This document shows positions 3,016-10,725 of a stretch of DNA of 64,000 bases, one piece after another. Under the pieces are notes generated by a model. It had not been told where the DNA came from and made no database searches. It saw nothing but the letters and a program-made list of their open reading frames with translations. The translations under genes and the position numbers were made by a program. The stretch covers positions 672,001 through 736,000 of the forward strand of contig CAVTHK010000011.1 of NCBI GenBank assembly GCA_963734495.1. The letters run 5' to 3'. Numbering within the stretch: position 1 is the first letter of the stretch; every line of letters starts with the position of its first letter. The stretch comes from an uncultured Spirochaetota bacterium (lineage in GTDB: Bacteria > Spirochaetota > Spirochaetia > SZUA-6 > CAVTHK01).

Positions 3016-4245
3016 GTGTCTGACTCGGGGTCTCACAGGCCGATTCGCATCGGGCTCGTCGGCATCGGCGGCTTCGCGAAGACGCACCTCGCGGCGATCA
3101 GGCACGCCGAGGCCGCGGGGATCGCGAAGCTCGCGGCCGCGGTCAACATAGAGACGGTCAGGGACGCGGAGGAGGAGCGGCGTCTGCGCGAAGCTGGCGT
3201 GGCGATCTACCGGTCGCACGGCGAGATGCTCGACCGCGAGCGCGGCGTGGACCTGGTGGGGATCCCGTGCGGCATCGACCAGCACGCACCCCTGTCGGTC
3301 GAATGCCTGGACGGGGGCTTCCACGTGCTGTGCGAGAAGCCCGCGGCCGGCGACACCGCGCAGGCGCTCGAGATGGCGACGGCCCGCGAACGCTCAGGCA
3401 AGGTGCTCGCGATCGGCTACCAGCACATGTATTCGGCATCGATCCGGCGCATCAAGGCGCTCACGGTGAGCGGCCGCCTGGGGAAGCTCCTCAGGGCGCG
3501 ATCCTATGTCCTGTGGCCGAGGACCCTCGACTACTACACCCGCCACGGCTGGGCCGGAAAGCTCAAGGCCAACGGCCGCTTCATCTTCGATTCTCCGGCG
3601 CAGAACGCCGTGGCCCACTACCTGCAGAACCTGCTCTACGCGGCGGGCGCCGACGAGCGGAGCAGCGCCGAGCCGGTCCGCGTCTACGGCGAGAACTACC
3701 GGGCCAACGACATCGAGTCCGCGGACACGCAGTACCTCCGCGTCGGCACGCGCGAAGGGTGCCTGATCATCTTCGCGGCAACGCACGCCACGAACGTCCG
3801 GCGCGATCCCGTCGCCGACTTCCAGTACGAAGGCGGCCGGGTGACCTGGGAGCTCGAGGGGAACGGCCGGACGCGGGTCTACGAGGGCCGCGCCGCGAGT
3901 CCCTCGGAGGAGCTCGACAACGGCCCGGCAGACGTCCACGACCTTCCGTACCTCGGCGTCATCGGCGCTCTGAGCCGCGGCGAAGAGCCGATCGCGACCA
4001 TCGACAACTGCATCCAGCACACCCGCTGCATCGACGCGCTCTTCACCAGGGCATCCGGGATCGCGAAGATACCGGCCTCGGCGATCCGCGTCGCGCAGTC
4101 CTACGGGCCGGAGAGCGGCCCAAAAGCGCCCCTCACCTATGTGCCGGGCATCGAGGACCTCATGGCCCTCATGTACGAGAAGGACCTGAGCTTCGTGGAG
4201 GCCGGCGCCGCGTGGGGCAGGGCCGGGAGCGAAGTGACCCTGTAG
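3016..4245 (+). CDS. Gfo/Idh/MocA family oxidoreductase
   Basis: IGLVGIGGFA Rossmann motif and HVLCEKP. Confidence 0.9.
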   Translation: MSDSGSHRPIRIGLVGIGGFAKTHLAAIRHAEAAGIAKLAAAVNIETVRDAEEERRLREAGVAIYRSHGEMLDRERGVDLVGIPCGIDQHAPLSVECLDGGFHVLCEKPAAGDTAQALEMATARERSGKVLAIGYQHMYSASIRRIKALTVSGRLGKLLRARSYVLWPRTLDYYTRHGWAGKLKANGRFIFDSPAQNAVAHYLQNLLYAAGADERSSAEPVRVYGENYRANDIESADTQYLRVGTREGCLIIFAATHATNVRRDPVADFQYEGGRVTWELEGNGRTRVYEGRAASPSEELDNGPADVHDLPYLGVIGALSRGEEPIATIDNCIQHTRCIDALFTRASGIAKIPASAIRVAQSYGPESGPKAPLTYVPGIEDLMALMYEKDLSFVEAGAAWGRAGSEVTL

Positions 4246-4275: not shown

Positions 4276-4902
4276 TCAGCGCGGGCCGCGGTGCGCGCGC
4301 GGGTGCGCCTGCTCGCCGAGGGCGACGCCGGCGAAGAACGCGACCTGGAAGCGCTCCACCGGGTAGCTCTCGAGATCGCTCCACGGCGGCGCCCCCGCCT
4401 CGGGTATGAACGCAAGGCGGCCGCCGAAGTAGAAGCCGTGGAGGTCGAAGGCCAGGCCCGCGGAGAGCATCGGGAAGATCGACACCAGCACGGGCGTGTC
4501 GACGTCGGGGCCTTCCTCCCCGGCCCGGCCCGCGCTGCCCACTGCTACGTGCACGAACGGGTCCACAAAGTGGCCCGCGCCCACCAGGTGGTAGCTCAGG
4601 AACAGCGCCTCGGTCATCCAGTCGACCGACCAGCGGTCGAGGGAATCCCTGGAGAAGCTCACCATGTAATTGCCGCCGAACCCGATGTGGTCGACCACGA
4701 CTTCCCACCCCGGCCCGTAGAAAAGCGGCTGGTCCGGCTCGGCGAACGCGTCGATGGCCTCTCCCGCCGTCGGCCGCTCGGAAAAGGGAAGGGCCATGTT
4801 GCCCACGATCCTGACCTGCTCGAGCGCGGACGCCTTCGTGGCAGCCGTCGCGGCCGCCAGCGCGACCAGGAAGACGACTGCCGACCTTCTTCTATTGCCC
4901 AT
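4276..4902 (-). CDS. Secreted hypothetical protein, probable outer-membrane beta-barrel
   Basis: Signal peptide (VVFLVALAAATAATKASA), amphipathic aromatic-rich strands, C-terminal FFAGVAL strand. RBS GGAGG lies upstream. Confidence 0.6.
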   Translation of the reverse strand: MGNRRRSAVVFLVALAAATAATKASALEQVRIVGNMALPFSERPTAGEAIDAFAEPDQPLFYGPGWEVVVDHIGFGGNYMVSFSRDSLDRWSVDWMTEALFLSYHLVGAGHFVDPFVHVAVGSAGRAGEEGPDVDTPVLVSIFPMLSAGLAFDLHGFYFGGRLAFIPEAGAPPWSDLESYPVERFQVAFFAGVALGEQAHPRAHRGPR

Positions 4903-4973
4903 TCGTGAACCTCCTTTGGCTCAAGCGCCTGGCCGTCCGTTACCCGCACACGGAGCGGCAGGGTCTATACTGG

Positions 4974-5040
4974 AACACGGAGCGGGCGGGCGGCTGTCAC
5001 CGCCGGTTTCCCGGTGACAGCAACGCGGTCGGCGGGTGTT
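4974..5040. promoter_or_regulatory. Back-to-back putative ECF promoters, GTGACAG-N15-GTGTT on both strands
   Basis: Plus strand: GTGACA 5014-5019, 16 nt, GTGTT 5036-5040. Minus strand: GTGACA 5000-4995, 16 nt, GTGTT 4978-4974. The -35 boxes form the inverted repeat GCTGTCACCG-N9-CGGTGACAGC (4993-5021). Confidence 0.7.
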
Positions 5041-5074
5041 GAACTTTGCGAGGAGCCGGAAAGGTTCGGTCCGT

Positions 5075-5554
5075 TTGGCAGTCGATGTCGAAGCCCTCTA
5101 CAGGCGATACGGGCCGATGGTCCTCAGGCGCTGCCGCCGGCTTCTGCGGGACGAGGAGCGAGCCGTGGACGCGATGCAGGACACGTTCGTGCAGGTGCTG
5201 AGGCGGGAACGCGCGCTCGACGAGAGGGCGCCTTCGAGCCTGCTGTACACCATCGCCACGAACGTCTGCCTCAACGTCCTGCGATCCGACCGCAGCCGGC
5301 CGCGGAGCGCAGGCGCGGAGCTGCTGGACACGATCGCCGGCCCGGACGATCCCGCCCGCAGAGCGGTGGACAGCCATCGGCTCGCGCGCATCTTCGCGAA
5401 GGAGAAGCCCTCGACCCGCGTCATCGCCGTGATGCACTTCGTCGACGGGCTGACCTACGAGGAGACCGCCGCGGAAGTGGGCCTTTCCGTCTCGGGGGTG
5501 AGGAAACGGCTGCGCTCGCTGCGGGCGCGCGCCAGGGCGCTGGAGGAAGGATGA
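5075..5554 (+). CDS. ECF RNA polymerase sigma-70 factor
   Basis: Region 2 (LYRRYGPMV...DAMQDTFVQV...LLYTIATNVCLN) and region 4 (DGLTYEETAAEVGLSVSGVRKRL). TTG start at 5075 chosen; the ORF track starts at 5036. Confidence 0.9.
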   Translation: MAVDVEALYRRYGPMVLRRCRRLLRDEERAVDAMQDTFVQVLRRERALDERAPSSLLYTIATNVCLNVLRSDRSRPRSAGAELLDTIAGPDDPARRAVDSHRLARIFAKEKPSTRVIAVMHFVDGLTYEETAAEVGLSVSGVRKRLRSLRARARALEEG

Positions 5555-6328
5555 AGCCGATGTCGGACCGTACGCTGGAACGGTACCTGCTCAGTGAATT
5601 GCCGGAAGATGAAATGGAAGAAGTCGCCCGCGCGGTCGACCAGGACCCGGACGTGGCGGCGCGCCTGGAGGCGCTGCGCCGCTCGAGCGCCGGGATCCTC
5701 GAGCGCTACCCGCCGTCGATGATGGCCGCGCGCATCCGCGACCGCTGGGACGCCGCCGAGAAGGCGGAGCAGGCCCGATTGCAGAGCCGCTGGCGCGGGC
5801 TGGCGTTCGCGCTGCCCGGGGCGGCGCTCGCGGCGCTCCTCCTGGTCGTGCTGCTGCCGATGCAGCAGGAGTCGACGCGGCTCAAGGGGCTGGAAGGCAG
5901 CCTGGCGCTGCACCGCAAGAGCGGCGCCGGGGATCGAGGCGCTCGCCGACGGCGCGCGCGCCTCAGCGGGCGACGTCATCCAGATCAGCTATGTGGCAGG
6001 CGGCGCCCGCTACGGCGCGATCTTCTCCATCGACGGCAGGGGTGCGGTGACCTGGCATCTCCCCCTGGGGCTTCGCCCGCGGGCCGAGTCGGCGCAGGTC
6101 CAGCCCGGCGGCGAAGTCCCTCTGGGAGCCGCGTACGAGCTCGACGACGCGCCGGGCTTCGAGCGGTTCTTCTTCGTCACTTCCGACAAGCCCTTCCCGC
6201 TGGACCGCATCGACGCGGAGGCGAAGCGCCTGGCCGCCGATCCCGCGGGCGCGCGCGGAGGGAGCCTGCGCATCGCGCGGGGGCTCGCGCAGGCTTCGTT
6301 CCTCCTGGTGAAGGCGGCCGGCCGATGA
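5551..6328 (+). CDS. Membrane-anchored anti-sigma factor-like protein with DUF4384-like C-terminal domain (1-nt frameshift near 5930)
   Basis: ATGA overlap with the sigma stop. N-terminal helical domain LERYLLSELP, one TM helix, then RLKG. Removing one G from the 5929-5932 run joins the two frames (IEALADGARASAGDVIQISY...YELDDAPGFERFFFV) into 258 aa. Confidence 0.75.
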
Positions 6329-8457
6329 AGAGACTCCTCGTCCCGTTCTGCCTCGCGCTGGCCGCTGCGGGGCTCGCCGCCGAACCGGCGGGCACGATCC
6401 GGCGCTTCGCGCTCGTGGCCGGCGCCAACGACGGGGGCTACGACCGCGTGCGCCTGCGCTACGCGGCGAGCGACGCGCGCGCCTTTGCGGCGGTGATCGG
6501 GGATCTCGGCGGGGTGAAGTCCGAGGACAGCATCCTGCTGATCAACCCCGACATCGGCGTCTTCGAGGACGCGCTCCGCCGGATCCGCTCGCGGATCCAG
6601 GCCGCGGCGGGCGGCGAGCGGCACGAGCTCATCGTCTACTACTCGGGCCACGCCGACGACGAAGGCCTGCTGCTCGGGCGCGAGCGTTTCCCCTACAGCC
6701 GGCTGCGCCGCGAGGTTTCGGAGATCGAGGCCGAGGTTCGCATCGCGGTGGTCGACTCCTGCTCGTCGGGCTCGCTCACGCGCGCCAAGGGCGGCTCTCC
6801 GCGGCCCGCCTTTCTCCAGGATTCGTCGACGGAGATGAAGGGCTATGCCTTTCTCACCTCCAGCTCCGCGGACGAGGTGGCGCAGGAGTCGGACCGCATC
6901 GGCGGGTCCTACTTTACGCACTTCCTCGTCGGGGGCCTGCGCGGCGCGGCCGACGCCAACGGCGACGGCGTCGTGACGCTCAACGAGGCGTACGCCTACG
7001 CCTTTACCGAGACCCTCGCGTCGACCGAGCGCACGCAGTACGGGCCGCAGCACCCCGCCTACGACATCGCGCTCACGGGCAAGGGCGACCTCGTGCTGAC
7101 CGACGTGCGCGAGGCGGCCGCGCGCCTCGTGATCGGCCCCGACGTCGCGGGACGCGTCTTCGTGCGGGACCGCGGCGGCGCGCTCGTGGCGGAGGTCGCC
7201 AAGAAGCCGGGCGACGCGCTGCAGCTCGCACTCGAGCCCGGCACCTACACCGTGCGCGTGCAGGAGCAGGATCGCTGGGCGGAAGGCTCGGTGACGGTGA
7301 GCCGCGACGCGCGGCGGGGCACCCCTCTGGATCGCGCGGACCTGCGGACGATCGCCGGCGAGCCCACCGTGGGCCGGGGCGAGGACGGAGAGCCGGGCCG
7401 CAGGCCGGCGGACGACTACGAGAAGCAGACCTTCCACTTCAGCTTCCTTCCGGAGATCAGCTCCCAGGGAATCTACGGCTCGCGCGAGGAGCAGGCGATC
7501 TCGATCAACCTCCTCGCCGGCAACGCCGCGGCCGTAAACGGCGTGGTGCTGGCGGGCGTTGCCTCCTTCGTGGGCGACCGCGTGGACGGGGCGCAGGCGT
7601 CGGGCGTCGTGAACGTGGTCGGCCAGGACGCCTGGGGCGCGCAGCTCGCCGGCGTGGTGAACTGGGTGGGCCGCGACGCCGGGTTCTACCAGGGGGCCGG
7701 CGTGCTGAACCTGGCCCGCGGCTCGCTGCTGGGCGTGCAGAATTCCGGTGTGATGAACTTCGCTTTCGGCGGCGTCCAAGGCCTCCAGCTCGCCGGCGTG
7801 GGCAACGTTTCGGGCGAGCACGCCTCGGGGGCGCAGGCGGCCGGCGTCTTCAACTACGCGCGTTCGGTGACGGGCGCGCAGCTTGCCGGCGCGGTGAACG
7901 TCGCGGGCCCGCTGCGCGGCGTGCAGGCGGGCGTGGTCAACATCGCAAGCGATGTCACGGGAGCGCAGGTCGGTCTCGTCAACATTTCGCGGCACCTCGA
8001 CGGCGTGCCGATCGGGCTCATCAACTACGAGCGCGACGGCAGCCGGCACCTGGAGGTTGCGTGGCAGGGCGACCGCATGACCGGCGCCATCAGGCTCGGC
8101 GCAGGCTACGTCTATTCGCTGCTGCGCGGCGCGGTCGTGCCCGACAGCGACCCGCTGGAGTGGTCGTACGGCTTCGGGCTCGGCGTCGAGGTTCCGCTCT
8201 TCGAGCCCGTCTTTATCGACGTGGACGCTTCGCTGTCGCAGTGGCTGGGCGGTCCGGGGTCGCCGTCGATCAACGACCCCGCGTCGGTCAAGCCCGATCT
8301 GCGGGTCGCGGCGAGGATTCTCCGCCGCCCGGGATTCGCCTTTCTGGCGGGCGCGAGCTTCGAGCTCGCGATCCCGGGATGGCACGACACCTCCGACCTC
8401 AAGATCACGCCGACCGCGTTCGTCGGCATGCAGTTCGGACGCGAGCGGAGCAGGTAA
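6325..8457 (+). CDS. Exported caspase-family (peptidase C14) protease with G-x-Q-x-A/G-G-x-x-N repeats and a C-terminal beta-rich domain
   Basis: ATGA overlap and signal peptide MKRLLVPFCLALAAAGLAA. RRFALVAGAN, YYSGH (His, 6649), VDSC (Cys, 6760), GSYFTHFLVGGLRGAADANGDG. About 10 repeats at roughly 7530-8030. Confidence 0.85.
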   Translation: MKRLLVPFCLALAAAGLAAEPAGTIRRFALVAGANDGGYDRVRLRYAASDARAFAAVIGDLGGVKSEDSILLINPDIGVFEDALRRIRSRIQAAAGGERHELIVYYSGHADDEGLLLGRERFPYSRLRREVSEIEAEVRIAVVDSCSSGSLTRAKGGSPRPAFLQDSSTEMKGYAFLTSSSADEVAQESDRIGGSYFTHFLVGGLRGAADANGDGVVTLNEAYAYAFTETLASTERTQYGPQHPAYDIALTGKGDLVLTDVREAAARLVIGPDVAGRVFVRDRGGALVAEVAKKPGDALQLALEPGTYTVRVQEQDRWAEGSVTVSRDARRGTPLDRADLRTIAGEPTVGRGEDGEPGRRPADDYEKQTFHFSFLPEISSQGIYGSREEQAISINLLAGNAAAVNGVVLAGVASFVGDRVDGAQASGVVNVVGQDAWGAQLAGVVNWVGRDAGFYQGAGVLNLARGSLLGVQNSGVMNFAFGGVQGLQLAGVGNVSGEHASGAQAAGVFNYARSVTGAQLAGAVNVAGPLRGVQAGVVNIASDVTGAQVGLVNISRHLDGVPIGLINYERDGSRHLEVAWQGDRMTGAIRLGAGYVYSLLRGAVVPDSDPLEWSYGFGLGVEVPLFEPVFIDVDASLSQWLGGPGSPSINDPASVKPDLRVAARILRRPGFAFLAGASFELAIPGWHDTSDLKITPTAFVGMQFGRERSR

Positions 8458-8493: not shown

Positions 8494-9039
8494 CTACCTG
8501 AGCGGAACGGCGAGCGACGTGCGGAACGAGTGGTAGGACGCGAAGGAGTCCTGGCTGCCGTAGGCCGCGATCAGCTCGAGCTCGGTCGCGCCCGCCGCGA
8601 TGACCCGCGAGGCGTCCAGCTCGACCTCGAGCACCGTGCGGCCGCCGCTCTCGGTGAGCGCGTGTGCGGTCGCGAACGGCGCGTCGGACGCGTCGGGCGC
8701 GGCGCTGTGACGGTGGCCGCTGCCGAGGTCCTCCTCGAAGGTCGCGGTCCCGTCCTTGACGTAGCCGATAAAGATGCGGGAGCCGTCCATGCGCCCGGTC
8801 CCCGTGCCGACGGCCACCCAGCCGGTCGTCTGGGCGGACAACGCAATGTAGACGCGGTCGGCCGTCCTCGCGAGCGACAGCGTCGCGCCGCGCAGCTCAC
8901 GGGTGAGCGTGTACTCGCCCTGGTGCACGACGCCGTCGACGACCGGATGCGTCGACGACACCGCGAGCGCCGTCTCCTGGGCGCCCGCCATGGTCGCGAC
9001 CGCGGTCGCGACGAGAATCGCGGCAATCTGGATTCGCAT
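8494..9039 (-). CDS. Secreted DOMON-domain protein
   Basis: Signal peptide, TTGWVAVG...RMDGSRIFIGYV, and a C-terminal YH (Met/His pair typical of heme-type DOMON). Confidence 0.75.
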   Translation of the reverse strand: MRIQIAAILVATAVATMAGAQETALAVSSTHPVVDGVVHQGEYTLTRELRGATLSLARTADRVYIALSAQTTGWVAVGTGTGRMDGSRIFIGYVKDGTATFEEDLGSGHRHSAAPDASDAPFATAHALTESGGRTVLEVELDASRVIAAGATELELIAAYGSQDSFASYHSFRTSLAVPLR

Positions 9040-9540: not shown

Positions 9541-10725
9541 ATGGACGCACAGAGAAAGGTGAAGATCGGGCTGATCGGCCTGGGCAACATCGGAGGCAAG
9601 ACTCACGCGGTCAACCTCAAGAGCATGGCCGGCATCGAGGTCGCGGGCGTCTGCGACATCGACGCGGCCTGCGCCGACAAGTTCGCGGCCGAGCTCGGCA
9701 CGACCGCGTACCACGATCACGCGAGCCTGTTCGCCCGCTCGGGCCTGGAGGCGGTGATCGTCGCGGTCCCCCACTACCAGCACACTCCCATCGCCATCGA
9801 GGCGCTCGGCCGGGGACTGCACGTCCTGTGCGAGAAACCGATGGCCGTCCACGTCAACGACGCGCGCAGGATGCTCGAAGCATGGGAAAAGGCGAAACGC
9901 CGGAATCCCGGGCTCATCTTCGCCATGATGCTGCAGGAGCGGACGCTCCCGCTCAACAGGAAGCTCAAGGACATCGTGACGGGCGGCGAGCTCGGCAGGC
10001 TCCTGCGCGTGACGTGGATCAACACCGCGTGGTTCAGGTCCCAGGCGTACTACGACAGCAGCGGGTGGCGGGCGACCTGGGCGGGCGAAGGGGGAGGCAT
10101 CCTCACGAACCAGTGTCCGCACAACCTGGACCTCTACCAGTGGCTGTTCGGCGTCCCCTCGAGAGTGAGCGGGTTCGCGCACCTCGGCAAGTATCACGAC
10201 ATCGAGGTCGAGGACGAGATCACCGCCTACTTCGAGCACGACAACGGCATGATCGGGCATTTCGTCGCAACGACCGCCGAGAGCCCCGGCACGAACCGGC
10301 TCGAGATCGTCGGCGAGTACGGCAGCCTCGTGAGCGAGAGGGGCAAGCTCATCTTCCACCGCAACCGCATGTCGATGCTGGAGTTCTCGAAGCAGACCAA
10401 AGAGGCGTTCGCGAAGATCGAGTGCTGGCCGACGGAAATCCCGTTCGAGTCGAAATCTCCCGCCAGCCACAAGCTGGTCGCCGAGAGGTTCGTGGACGCG
10501 ATCCTCGGCCGCGGGGAGCTCGTCGCGGACGGCAACGAGGGGATCAAGTCCGTCACGATCGCAAACGCCATCATGCTGTCTTCGTTCAGCGGGCGGCCGG
10601 TCGAGATCCCCTTTGACGCCGACGCCTACGAGCGCAAGCTCCAGGAGCTCGCGCGGAGCTCGACCTTCGCCAAGACGGTGCGGGACGACGTCGGGGTGAA
10701 CATGACGAGCTCGTTCTCGCACTAA
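9541..10725 (+). CDS. Gfo/Idh/MocA family oxidoreductase
   Basis: IGLIGLGNIG, HVLCEKP, GGGILTNQCPHNLD. Confidence 0.92.
   Translation: MDAQRKVKIGLIGLGNIGGKTHAVNLKSMAGIEVAGVCDIDAACADKFAAELGTTAYHDHASLFARSGLEAVIVAVPHYQHTPIAIEALGRGLHVLCEKPMAVHVNDARRMLEAWEKAKRRNPGLIFAMMLQERTLPLNRKLKDIVTGGELGRLLRVTWINTAWFRSQAYYDSSGWRATWAGEGGGILTNQCPHNLDLYQWLFGVPSRVSGFAHLGKYHDIEVEDEITAYFEHDNGMIGHFVATTAESPGTNRLEIVGEYGSLVSERGKLIFHRNRMSMLEFSKQTKEAFAKIECWPTEIPFESKSPASHKLVAERFVDAILGRGELVADGNEGIKSVTIANAIMLSSFSGRPVEIPFDADAYERKLQELARSSTFAKTVRDDVGVNMTSSFSH

Follow-up and report, generated by a model that had tools for sequence, protein, structure and literature searches.

The 64,000-nt stretch of DNA analysed here (the window, whose positions are used as coordinates throughout) lies on contig 11 of a draft genome of an uncultured Spirochaetota bacterium (G000; 18 contigs, 83% complete). 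In an interval of ~70% G+C it carries, on the plus strand, a gene for a sigma factor of the extracytoplasmic function (ECF) type, a middle gene for a putative membrane-spanning anti-sigma factor and a gene for an exported caspase-like protease of peptidase family C14, in this order. The ATG of the middle gene (5551) lies within an ATGA that overlaps the sigma stop codon, and the ATG of the protease gene (6325) lies within an ATGA that overlaps the stop codon of the middle gene. A first-pass annotation of the bare sequence had described three genes joined by such overlaps and had assigned them to the interval 4276-8457. The genes and both ATGA junctions are real, but the middle gene does not run in a single open frame here, as it is interrupted at a GGGG run (5929-5932), and position 4276 belongs to a divergent gene on the minus strand. 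Their order and conservation, described below, support the view that the three genes form a conserved unit, a presumably co-transcribed envelope signalling module. The features of the locus are the following:

4276-4902, minus strand: divergent gene for a 208-amino-acid protein with a signal-peptide-like N-terminus (open reading frame)
4974-5000, minus strand (G000:C11:676974-677000): promoter-like motif GTGACA-N16-GTGTT facing the divergent gene (pattern search)
5014-5040, plus strand: promoter-like motif GTGACA-N16-GTGTT upstream of the sigma gene (pattern search)
5075-5554, plus strand: ECF sigma factor, 159 amino acids (Pfam Sigma70_r2 and r4_2, TIGR02937)
5551-5931, plus strand: first part of the anti-sigma gene in frame 1, predicted cytoplasmic anti-sigma domain, transmembrane helix and juxtamembrane linker (translation, ortholog model)
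5875-5889, plus strand: T-R-L-K-G in the anti-sigma linker, candidate cleavage site (translation, alignment)
5929-5932, plus strand: GGGG run with one extra base, +1 frame break (open reading frames, comparison with relatives)
5933-6328, plus strand: second part of the anti-sigma gene in frame 2, predicted periplasmic immunoglobulin (Ig)-like domain of DUF4384 type (sub-cut-off Pfam DUF4384, tblastn, fold)
6325-8457, plus strand: exported C14 (caspase/metacaspase-like) protease, 710 amino acids, predicted to be anchored in the outer membrane (profiles, model, structure comparison)
6388-7116, plus strand: caspase-fold domain of the protease, residues 22-264, with His109 and Cys146 (VIA Z 17-19.4 to caspases, MALT1 and metacaspases)
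6778-6792, plus strand: T152-R-A-K155-G156, candidate autoprocessing or pseudosubstrate site of the protease (alignment, model)
6952-6987, plus strand: canonical 12-residue EF-hand loop D210-x-N-x-D-G-x-V-T-x-x-E221 (sequence, model)
7117-7359, plus strand: Ig-like beta-sandwich, residues ~265-345 (strand pattern, predicted local distance difference test score, pLDDT, 87-93)
7417-8037, plus strand: continuous beta-solenoid of LA_2272-type GxQxxGxxN repeats, residues 365-571 (model, NCBIfam)
8038-8442, plus strand: C-terminal 8-stranded transmembrane beta-barrel, residues 572-706 (model, structure comparison)

The first gene encodes an ECF (group 4) sigma-70 factor, as the first-pass annotation had stated. 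Sigma70_r2 (E 4e-14) and Sigma70_r4_2 (E 4e-7) both score above their Pfam cut-offs, TIGR02937 reaches 74.9 bits against an NCBIfam cut-off of 42.9, and the assignment agrees with a size of 159-172 amino acids. The upper value corresponds to the mechanically listed reading frame from GTG 5036, and the lower one to a start at TTG 5075. The listed GTG is an unlikely start because it lies inside the -10 element of the conserved promoter motif. Translation most likely begins at TTG 5075, which is preceded by a GGAAAGG ribosome-binding site and matches the MA(V/L)DVE start conserved in relatives.

Judging from the model of its same-genus ortholog (pLDDT 88), the middle gene would encode a single-pass anti-sigma factor composed of a helical anti-sigma domain, a disordered linker and a periplasmic Ig-like DUF4384 domain. 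In this model four helices (residues 6-68) are followed by a transmembrane helix (83-95), the linker and the Ig-like domain. The four-helix domain resembles those of RsiW, MucA and RslA (VIA Z 6.4-6.7), and the Ig-like domain matches other Ig-like folds, including S-layer, AGS-C and macroglobulin domains, with Z values of 8-9. At the sequence level, the N-terminal part reaches 33 bits with the NCBIfam anti-sigma model NF052375, under the cut-off of 100, and the H-x3-C-x2-C motif of the zinc-binding anti-sigma (ZAS) type is absent from the window's N-terminal domain, which contains neither Cys nor His. The first-pass annotation had distinguished an anti-sigma-like domain, a transmembrane segment and an extracytoplasmic beta domain, all of which we find, but it had read through the frame break without noticing it: anti-sigma domain, helix and linker are encoded in frame 1 up to ~5931, and the DUF4384 part in frame 2 from 5933. 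Of the families that it had suggested as checks, Peptidase_C14 and the LA_2272-type repeat score above their cut-offs, while DUF4384 stays below (18.6 versus 27 bits). By tblastn, the DUF4384 part is 37–56% identical to the gene adjoining the protease gene in 70 of the 72 wider loci introduced below. The protein ends after this domain, with a length of 254-302 amino acids in 60 orthologues, and a search for longer, fused relatives yielded one weak match (469 amino acids, E 4.5e-13, 41% query coverage).

The protease was modelled with AlphaFold (mean pLDDT 86) and compared all-against-all with known structures. It begins with a signal peptide and is a member of peptidase family C14 by its modelled fold and its catalytic dyad: Peptidase_C14 (PF00656) scores 29.2 bits against a Pfam cut-off of 21.4, Foldseek aligns the caspase domain with MALT1 (E 1e-5), and His109 (in YYSGH) and Cys146 (in VDSC) are invariant in 80 of 80 homologues. 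The DANGDG segment, which is likewise conserved among the 80 homologues, forms part of the canonical EF-hand loop (210-221), placed by the model between helices 196-208 and 219-234; D210 is the same in all homologues, and conservation of D214, G215 and E221 reaches at least 90%. Comparison of the caspase domain with the sequences of solved structures gave no significant match, the best (E 0.13) covering the EF-hand loop only and falling on EF-hand loops of a calcium-binding protein. We do not claim the caspase-Ig3 arrangement of MALT1 for this protein: MALT1 takes the top rank in Foldseek, but the root-mean-square deviation (rmsd) is 13-15 over two-domain alignments. With 62 bits against a cut-off of 140, the protease also falls outside the EACC1-associated caspase family NF047832, and it has a signal peptide besides.

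C-terminal to the caspase domain, the Ig-like sandwich is connected by a disordered linker to a solenoid that runs continuously from residue 365 to 571. LA_2272_repeat (NF047436) matches it in two stretches with 45.6 bits against a cut-off of 25. The strict pattern G.Q..G..N occurs six times and Q..[GAS]..N seven times, where the first-pass annotation had counted about ten repeats. In structure the solenoid matches the beta-helical antifreeze protein 3p4g (VIA Z 19.4, rmsd 2.0 over 199 residues), with further matches to TPS secretion domains and antigen 43. The terminal amphipathic strands, noted earlier together with the signal peptide, the intact dyad and the EF-hand-like segment, all of which stand, form an 8-stranded barrel in the model. 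Seven of the eight strands have alternating hydrophobic and polar faces, and the barrel matches OprF-N, OmpA, NspA, PagL, OmpW and designed transmembrane barrels with VIA Z of 12-16. Its strands are joined alternately by turns of two residues (594-595, 627-628, 669-670) and by longer loops (606-611, 643-654, 683-692), which by the usual rule for outer-membrane proteins puts the N-terminus of the barrel in the periplasm. In this topology both barrel termini would be periplasmic, the solenoid, Ig-like and caspase domains would hang into the periplasm, and the part facing outside would amount to three loops of 6-12 residues. The proposal that the repeat region senses an outside ligand does not fit this model, which has the solenoid on the periplasmic side of the barrel; the repeats would constitute a stalk instead.

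Conservation analysis showed that the protease is widespread. Among 8000 scored candidates at least 2873 are homologues, and at least 572 stretches from species-representative genomes encode a relative, in Spirochaetota, Myxococcota, Eiseniibacteriota and other groups. In 11 of 11 relatives' loci the sigma, anti-sigma and protease genes follow one another in the same order. Wider counts were made on the best 80 of the at least 572 stretches, 72 of which include at least 1400 nt upstream of the protease gene: the DUF4384 part of the anti-sigma adjoins the protease gene in 70 of these 72 loci and the sigma gene is present as well in 58, while at L029 and L032 neither is adjacent. Conservation of the triplet elsewhere, which had been named as a test of the idea, is thus borne out. 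The junctions between anti-sigma and protease genes are ATGA or GTGATG. Moreover, in 40 relatives belonging to the same order, which are related genomes and not independent samples, a strong protease match and an anti-sigma are found on the same contig in 25 and are both missing in 14; the single genome with the anti-sigma only (G022) has it on a short contig that lacks the protease.

Both partners share a short motif. In the protease, T152, R153, K155 and G156 are invariant in 80 of 80 homologues and lie inside a loop (148-173; pLDDT <50) starting two positions past the catalytic Cys146; such a disordered loop is presumably where caspase-family enzymes are processed. In 58 anti-sigma orthologues from several phyla, K and G of the corresponding motif are present in all and R in 55; the preceding residue is most often T (28 of 58). 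In the ortholog model this motif falls in a segment without regular structure that separates the disordered, variable linker from the first DUF4384 strand. A single R.KG is found in each of the 80 proteases and in 55 of the 58 anti-sigmas. The motif R-x-K-G is also retained in both partners of two distant paralogous modules from myxobacteria (L099 and L100), whose sigma factors are 34–39% and whose proteases are 38–44% identical; the active-site contexts of these two proteases differ, reading DACESG and DSCQSG. Metacaspases cut after Arg or Lys, and the D-S-C-x-S-G and Y-S-G-H motifs of the window protease resemble those of metacaspases, from which we assume a preference for a basic P1 residue. 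Given its joint conservation, its disordered placement, its retention in the paralogs and the metacaspase-like active-site motifs, R-x-K-G is a candidate cleavage site in both proteins.

The intergenic region between the sigma gene and the divergent gene contains two copies of a promoter-like motif with identical 16-nt spacing and opposite directions. The copy at 5014-5040 is a candidate autoregulatory ECF promoter. A regular-expression search found GT(G/A)ACA-N16-GTGTT directly upstream of the sigma gene in 48 of the 64 loci with enough upstream sequence, and these loci span Spirochaetota and Myxococcota. The divergent arrangement of two copies recurs at L014-L016, where a single palindromic -35 element, reading GTGACAC or GTGTCAC according to strand, appears to serve both promoters. 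Across the whole genome the exact motif occurs six times, compared with one match for a reversed control pattern, and two of the six are those at this locus. The other four precede a split efflux adaptor gene (see below), a gene for a signal-peptide protein (L096; G000:C13:375300-378100), a small membrane open reading frame (L095; G000:C6:12200-15000) and, ~260 nt upstream, groEL (L094; G000:C2:87500-90300); these sites may represent regulon members or chance matches. Consensus scans detected no sigma-70-type promoter, and the sole terminator-like site lies inside the protease gene. With two equally spaced motif copies facing both ways, and with conservation of the motif across phyla, it is probable that the sigma factor transcribes both its own operon and the divergent gene, in agreement with the earlier suggestion.

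The divergent gene is accordingly listed as a predicted regulon member. Its 208-amino-acid product has no match in Pfam or NCBIfam and is probably a small outer-membrane beta-barrel protein; its ESM Atlas features lie at 0.96 to clusters named outer membrane protein beta-barrel, which we treat as a lead only. Homologues are encoded in 12 of the 80 loci, and also at L006 and L008, either divergently upstream or just downstream of the protease gene. A relationship of this protein to the barrel of the protease was considered and dropped, the similarity being insignificant (best E 0.61).

We give about even chances to the locus being an envelope signalling module in which an ECF sigma factor that regulates its own expression is kept in check by a single-pass DUF4384 anti-sigma, and in which a metacaspase-like protease hung from the outer membrane acts on that anti-sigma. 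It is plausible from the sequences that the protease cuts the anti-sigma, and R-x-K-G would be the precise candidate site. Gene order, domain content, conservation, both motifs and the modelled topology are what the analysis shows; activity of the protease, the site, the order of events and the signal are what we infer, as follows. A signal, perhaps calcium bound by the EF-hand loop or an altered state of the envelope, would activate the protease, which might first process its own T-R-x-K-G loop and would then cut the anti-sigma at R-x-K-G between linker and DUF4384 (site-1 cleavage). An RseP-type protease and cytoplasmic proteases would remove the remaining anti-sigma, and the freed sigma would transcribe its own operon, the divergent gene with its small outer-membrane product and a handful of further genes preceded by GTGACA-N16-GTGTT. 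A more specific version, which we hold tentatively and at somewhat less than even chances, sees the outer-membrane-tethered, calcium-binding metacaspase-like protease as a dedicated site-1 protease that recognises the same T-R-x-K-G both within itself, in the activation loop, and in the linker of the anti-sigma. As the protease would sit on a rigid solenoid projecting from the outer membrane while its target lies beside the inner membrane, the module would then report the state of the envelope, be it outer-membrane integrity, periplasmic calcium or intermembrane distance.

Several observations weigh against this reading of the locus. The DUF4384 match of the anti-sigma is a sub-cut-off one (Pfam; E 0.002), and the anti-sigma gene is broken in this assembly. 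In 14 of the 72 loci the sigma gene is not adjacent; 12 of these are myxobacterial and keep protease and anti-sigma. Conversely, the orthologous sigma and an ActD-like anti-sigma are found in two myxobacterial genomes (L097, L098) with no caspase gene within the fetched flank, so this type of anti-sigma exists without an adjacent protease. Structure or catalysis may be what conserves the R-x-K-G of the protease, in which case its match with the anti-sigma could be coincidental. The geometry is also awkward, as the anti-sigma motif is 10-45 residues (median 17) from the inner-membrane helix and the protease would be anchored in the outer membrane. Linker length and the length of the protease after the catalytic Cys are uncorrelated (Spearman -0.01, p 0.92, n=55; 60 pairs minus three without R.KG and two with a truncated protease). 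Our literature search found no experiment on any member of the module. Complex prediction for the same-genus ortholog pair (protease 19-600 with anti-sigma 97-254, with alignments, run without controls) gave 0.08 against a mark of 0.32, a value that speaks neither for binding nor against it.

In a rival reading, the protease would be the output of the module and not its input. The sigma factor would then switch on a periplasmic protease directed at other envelope proteins, and the anti-sigma would be inactivated otherwise, by a DegS- or Prc-type protease or through sensing by DUF4384, with DUF4384 and R-x-K-G serving to dock or inhibit the protease. The protease gene does lie downstream in the sigma-dependent operon and is at least a regulon member; sigma and anti-sigma occur without adjacent protease at L097 and L098, and protease and anti-sigma-like gene without adjacent sigma in 12 loci, one of which (L070) is an act-type operon. 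DUF4384 is often fused to protease domains, according to Kato et al. (bioRxiv 10.1101/2022.08.17.504292), which fits a protease partner as well as a substrate. Against such a role as output stand the near-perfect co-occurrence of anti-sigma and protease (25 genomes with both, 14 with neither), their translational coupling, and the presence of the shared motif in the very loop of the protease at which processing would be expected; moreover, the two roles are compatible, as positive feedback. We therefore regard it as unlikely, though a serious contender, that the protease is output alone. Far less credible is a third arrangement, in which protease and repeats are displayed on the surface in the manner of an autotransporter and act on external substrates, sigma and anti-sigma being merely a neighbouring expression control. 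The solenoid directly N-terminal of a C-terminal barrel recalls autotransporter passengers, as does its likeness to antigen 43 and TPS domains, and the repeat family bears the name surface repeat-containing protein in NCBIfam. Type Va autotransporters have a C-terminal 12-stranded barrel through which the passenger is exported, whereas the barrel modelled here has eight strands, of the OmpA, OprF and PagL type (Z 12-16), with no autotransporter barrel among the 50 matches listed. An 8-stranded outer-membrane barrel has no pore that would pass a polypeptide, and the turn and loop lengths in the model put its N-terminus in the periplasm.

A real frame break would mean that the anti-sigma is inactivated in this strain, leaving the sigma factor constitutively active or the module in decay. 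The given sequence does carry the extra base, and a search of the genome (G000) recovers the anti-sigma as two pieces. Environmental contigs differ at this position: one base fewer at 5929-5932 is found in three of them (two from run X1 and one from run X3), of which one covers 483 nt with seven differences. In run X1 the contigs with the deletion at 5929 make up a depth of 9.2 out of 23.6 and other contigs cover the site without it, and in run X5 (depth 7.74) no deletion is reported at 5929; both runs in this respect favour a real break. On the other side, the two parts of the anti-sigma are encoded in a single frame in 11 of 11 relatives' loci, and the alignment of the window with its same-genus ortholog crosses the break with no residue lost, both halves fully conserved and no other lesion. 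Near-identical environmental DNA is intact, and the break falls in a homopolymer. Other genes of the genome also break at G runs: the gene for an HlyD-type efflux adaptor (L093; G000:C1:511500-514300, minus strand), which has the promoter motif upstream, is spread over three frames with breaks at GGG and GGGG, and the Pfam HlyD_D23 match begins only at profile position 25, in the middle piece. This split adaptor suggests homopolymer indel errors across the assembly. With a homopolymer site, environmental contigs lacking the base and another gene split at G runs, the frame break is most likely an assembly error, and an inactivated anti-sigma is improbable. Frame 1 stays open through to the protease, so the mechanical list of reading frames shows a spurious frame of 1147 amino acids; a gene caller could report a false anti-sigma/caspase fusion at 5014-8457 (plus strand), where frame 1 is open for 1147 codons.

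Several related systems are known. In E. coli, the single-pass anti-sigma RseA of sigma-E is cut in the periplasm by the site-1 protease DegS and then by RseP, an M50 site-2 protease. The same two-step logic is proposed here, and this genome has an M50 gene (Peptidase_M50, PF02163; 173 bits; G000:C8:38609-39895). In contrast to DegS, an inner-membrane serine protease, the candidate site-1 enzyme of the module is a caspase-fold cysteine protease tethered to the outer membrane, and the module has no RseB-like partner. FecA/FecR/FecI is a cell-surface signalling system that, like the module, combines a protein of the outer membrane with an anti-sigma of the inner membrane and an ECF sigma into a trans-envelope unit; in Pfam scans the protease gave no match to a TonB-dependent transducer domain and the anti-sigma none to a FecR domain, and the outer-membrane partner of the module is a protease. 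The sigma-E pathway is also summarised in PMC11506125, alongside the closest precedent, DdvS/DdvA of Myxococcus xanthus. For the latter, PMC6061681 and PMC11506125 describe an ECF sigma bound to a single-pass anti-sigma, together with a periplasmic caspase-fold TPR-CHAT protease with a His-Cys dyad, proposed but not shown to act as site-1 protease before RseP by cutting the juxtamembrane linker. The protease of DdvA, fused to its anti-sigma, works as a dimer, whereas the module has a separate C14 gene and a protein that would be anchored in the outer membrane and has no TPR; the anti-sigma domain of the module lacks the zinc motif, and its anti-sigma carries DUF4384. DdvA-like proteins are narrowly distributed according to PMC11506125, in contrast to the at least 572 stretches counted for the present module. 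In the type III-E CRISPR system, as described in bioRxiv 10.1101/2022.08.17.504292, the caspase-fold protease Csx29 cuts Csx30, which holds the ECF sigma RpoE, and the C-terminal domains of some Csx30 substrates are DUF4384. That system is cytoplasmic and RNA-guided and uses a TPR-CHAT protease; the module would act outside the cytoplasm, and its locus is free of CRISPR genes.

We found no paper on the combination of ECF sigma, DUF4384 anti-sigma and C14 protease. The main text of the ECF classification in PMC7826278 mentions neither DUF4384 nor a peptidase neighbourhood, although its supplements, which give group-wise neighbourhoods, may record the association. If the anti-sigma is cut as proposed, the module is a widespread and, as far as our searches reach, unpublished variant of anti-sigma control by proteolysis. 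The first-pass annotation mentioned neither the frame break nor the periplasmic precedent of DdvA/DdvS (PMC11506125) nor the name that homologues of the middle gene bear in Myxococcus. NCBI names these ActD protein and uses ActD-like protein for their counterparts in Archangium and Corallococcus; homologues of the protease are called caspase family protein or ICE-like protease. The DUF4384 part of the window is 50% identical (tblastn, E 1.8e-31) to the protein at L070, whose cluster is named ActD protein. As in the window, actD in Myxococcus is followed by a gene for a caspase family protein with overlapping stop and start codons. The pair at L070 stands behind genes for an NtrC-type sigma-54 activator and a GNAT acetyltransferase, an act-type context, with no adjacent ECF sigma; in the window an ECF sigma gene lies upstream in place of this context. 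The L070 genome has its orthologous ECF sigma elsewhere, beside another ActD-like anti-sigma that is followed by a barrel-only protein, with no protease. A stand-alone protein resembling only the C-terminal barrel of the protease is encoded by the next gene at L098 (G041:C154:50389-53856), and both L098 and L097 (G042:C1:7910619-7914089) belong to genomes with an ActD and caspase pair located elsewhere. Mutants of the act operon are reported to be changed in C-signal timing and level.

Caspase homologues are widespread in bacteria, and we know of no defined physiological substrate for them, nor, for most ECF anti-sigma factors, of the site-1 protease and signal. The module offers a specific candidate pair of enzyme and substrate with a five-residue candidate site, in hundreds of species from Spirochaetota, Myxococcota and other phyla, including the genetically tractable Myxococcus, where the middle gene is named ActD. 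If the proposed cleavage is true, the anti-sigma would be the first defined physiological substrate for bacterial caspase homologues, and it would provide a mechanism for ActD in Myxococcus development. The copy in the window is unremarkable apart from a middle gene that is probably broken by an assembly error.

Downstream of the protease gene, a convergent gene on the minus strand (8494-9039) encodes an exported protein with a DOMON domain, which scores 31.2 bits, just below the Pfam cut-off of 32.7. Genes for GFO/IDH/MocA-type oxidoreductases are located on either side of the module (3016-4245 and 9541-10725, both on the plus strand); their products share 35% identity across a 71-residue stretch.

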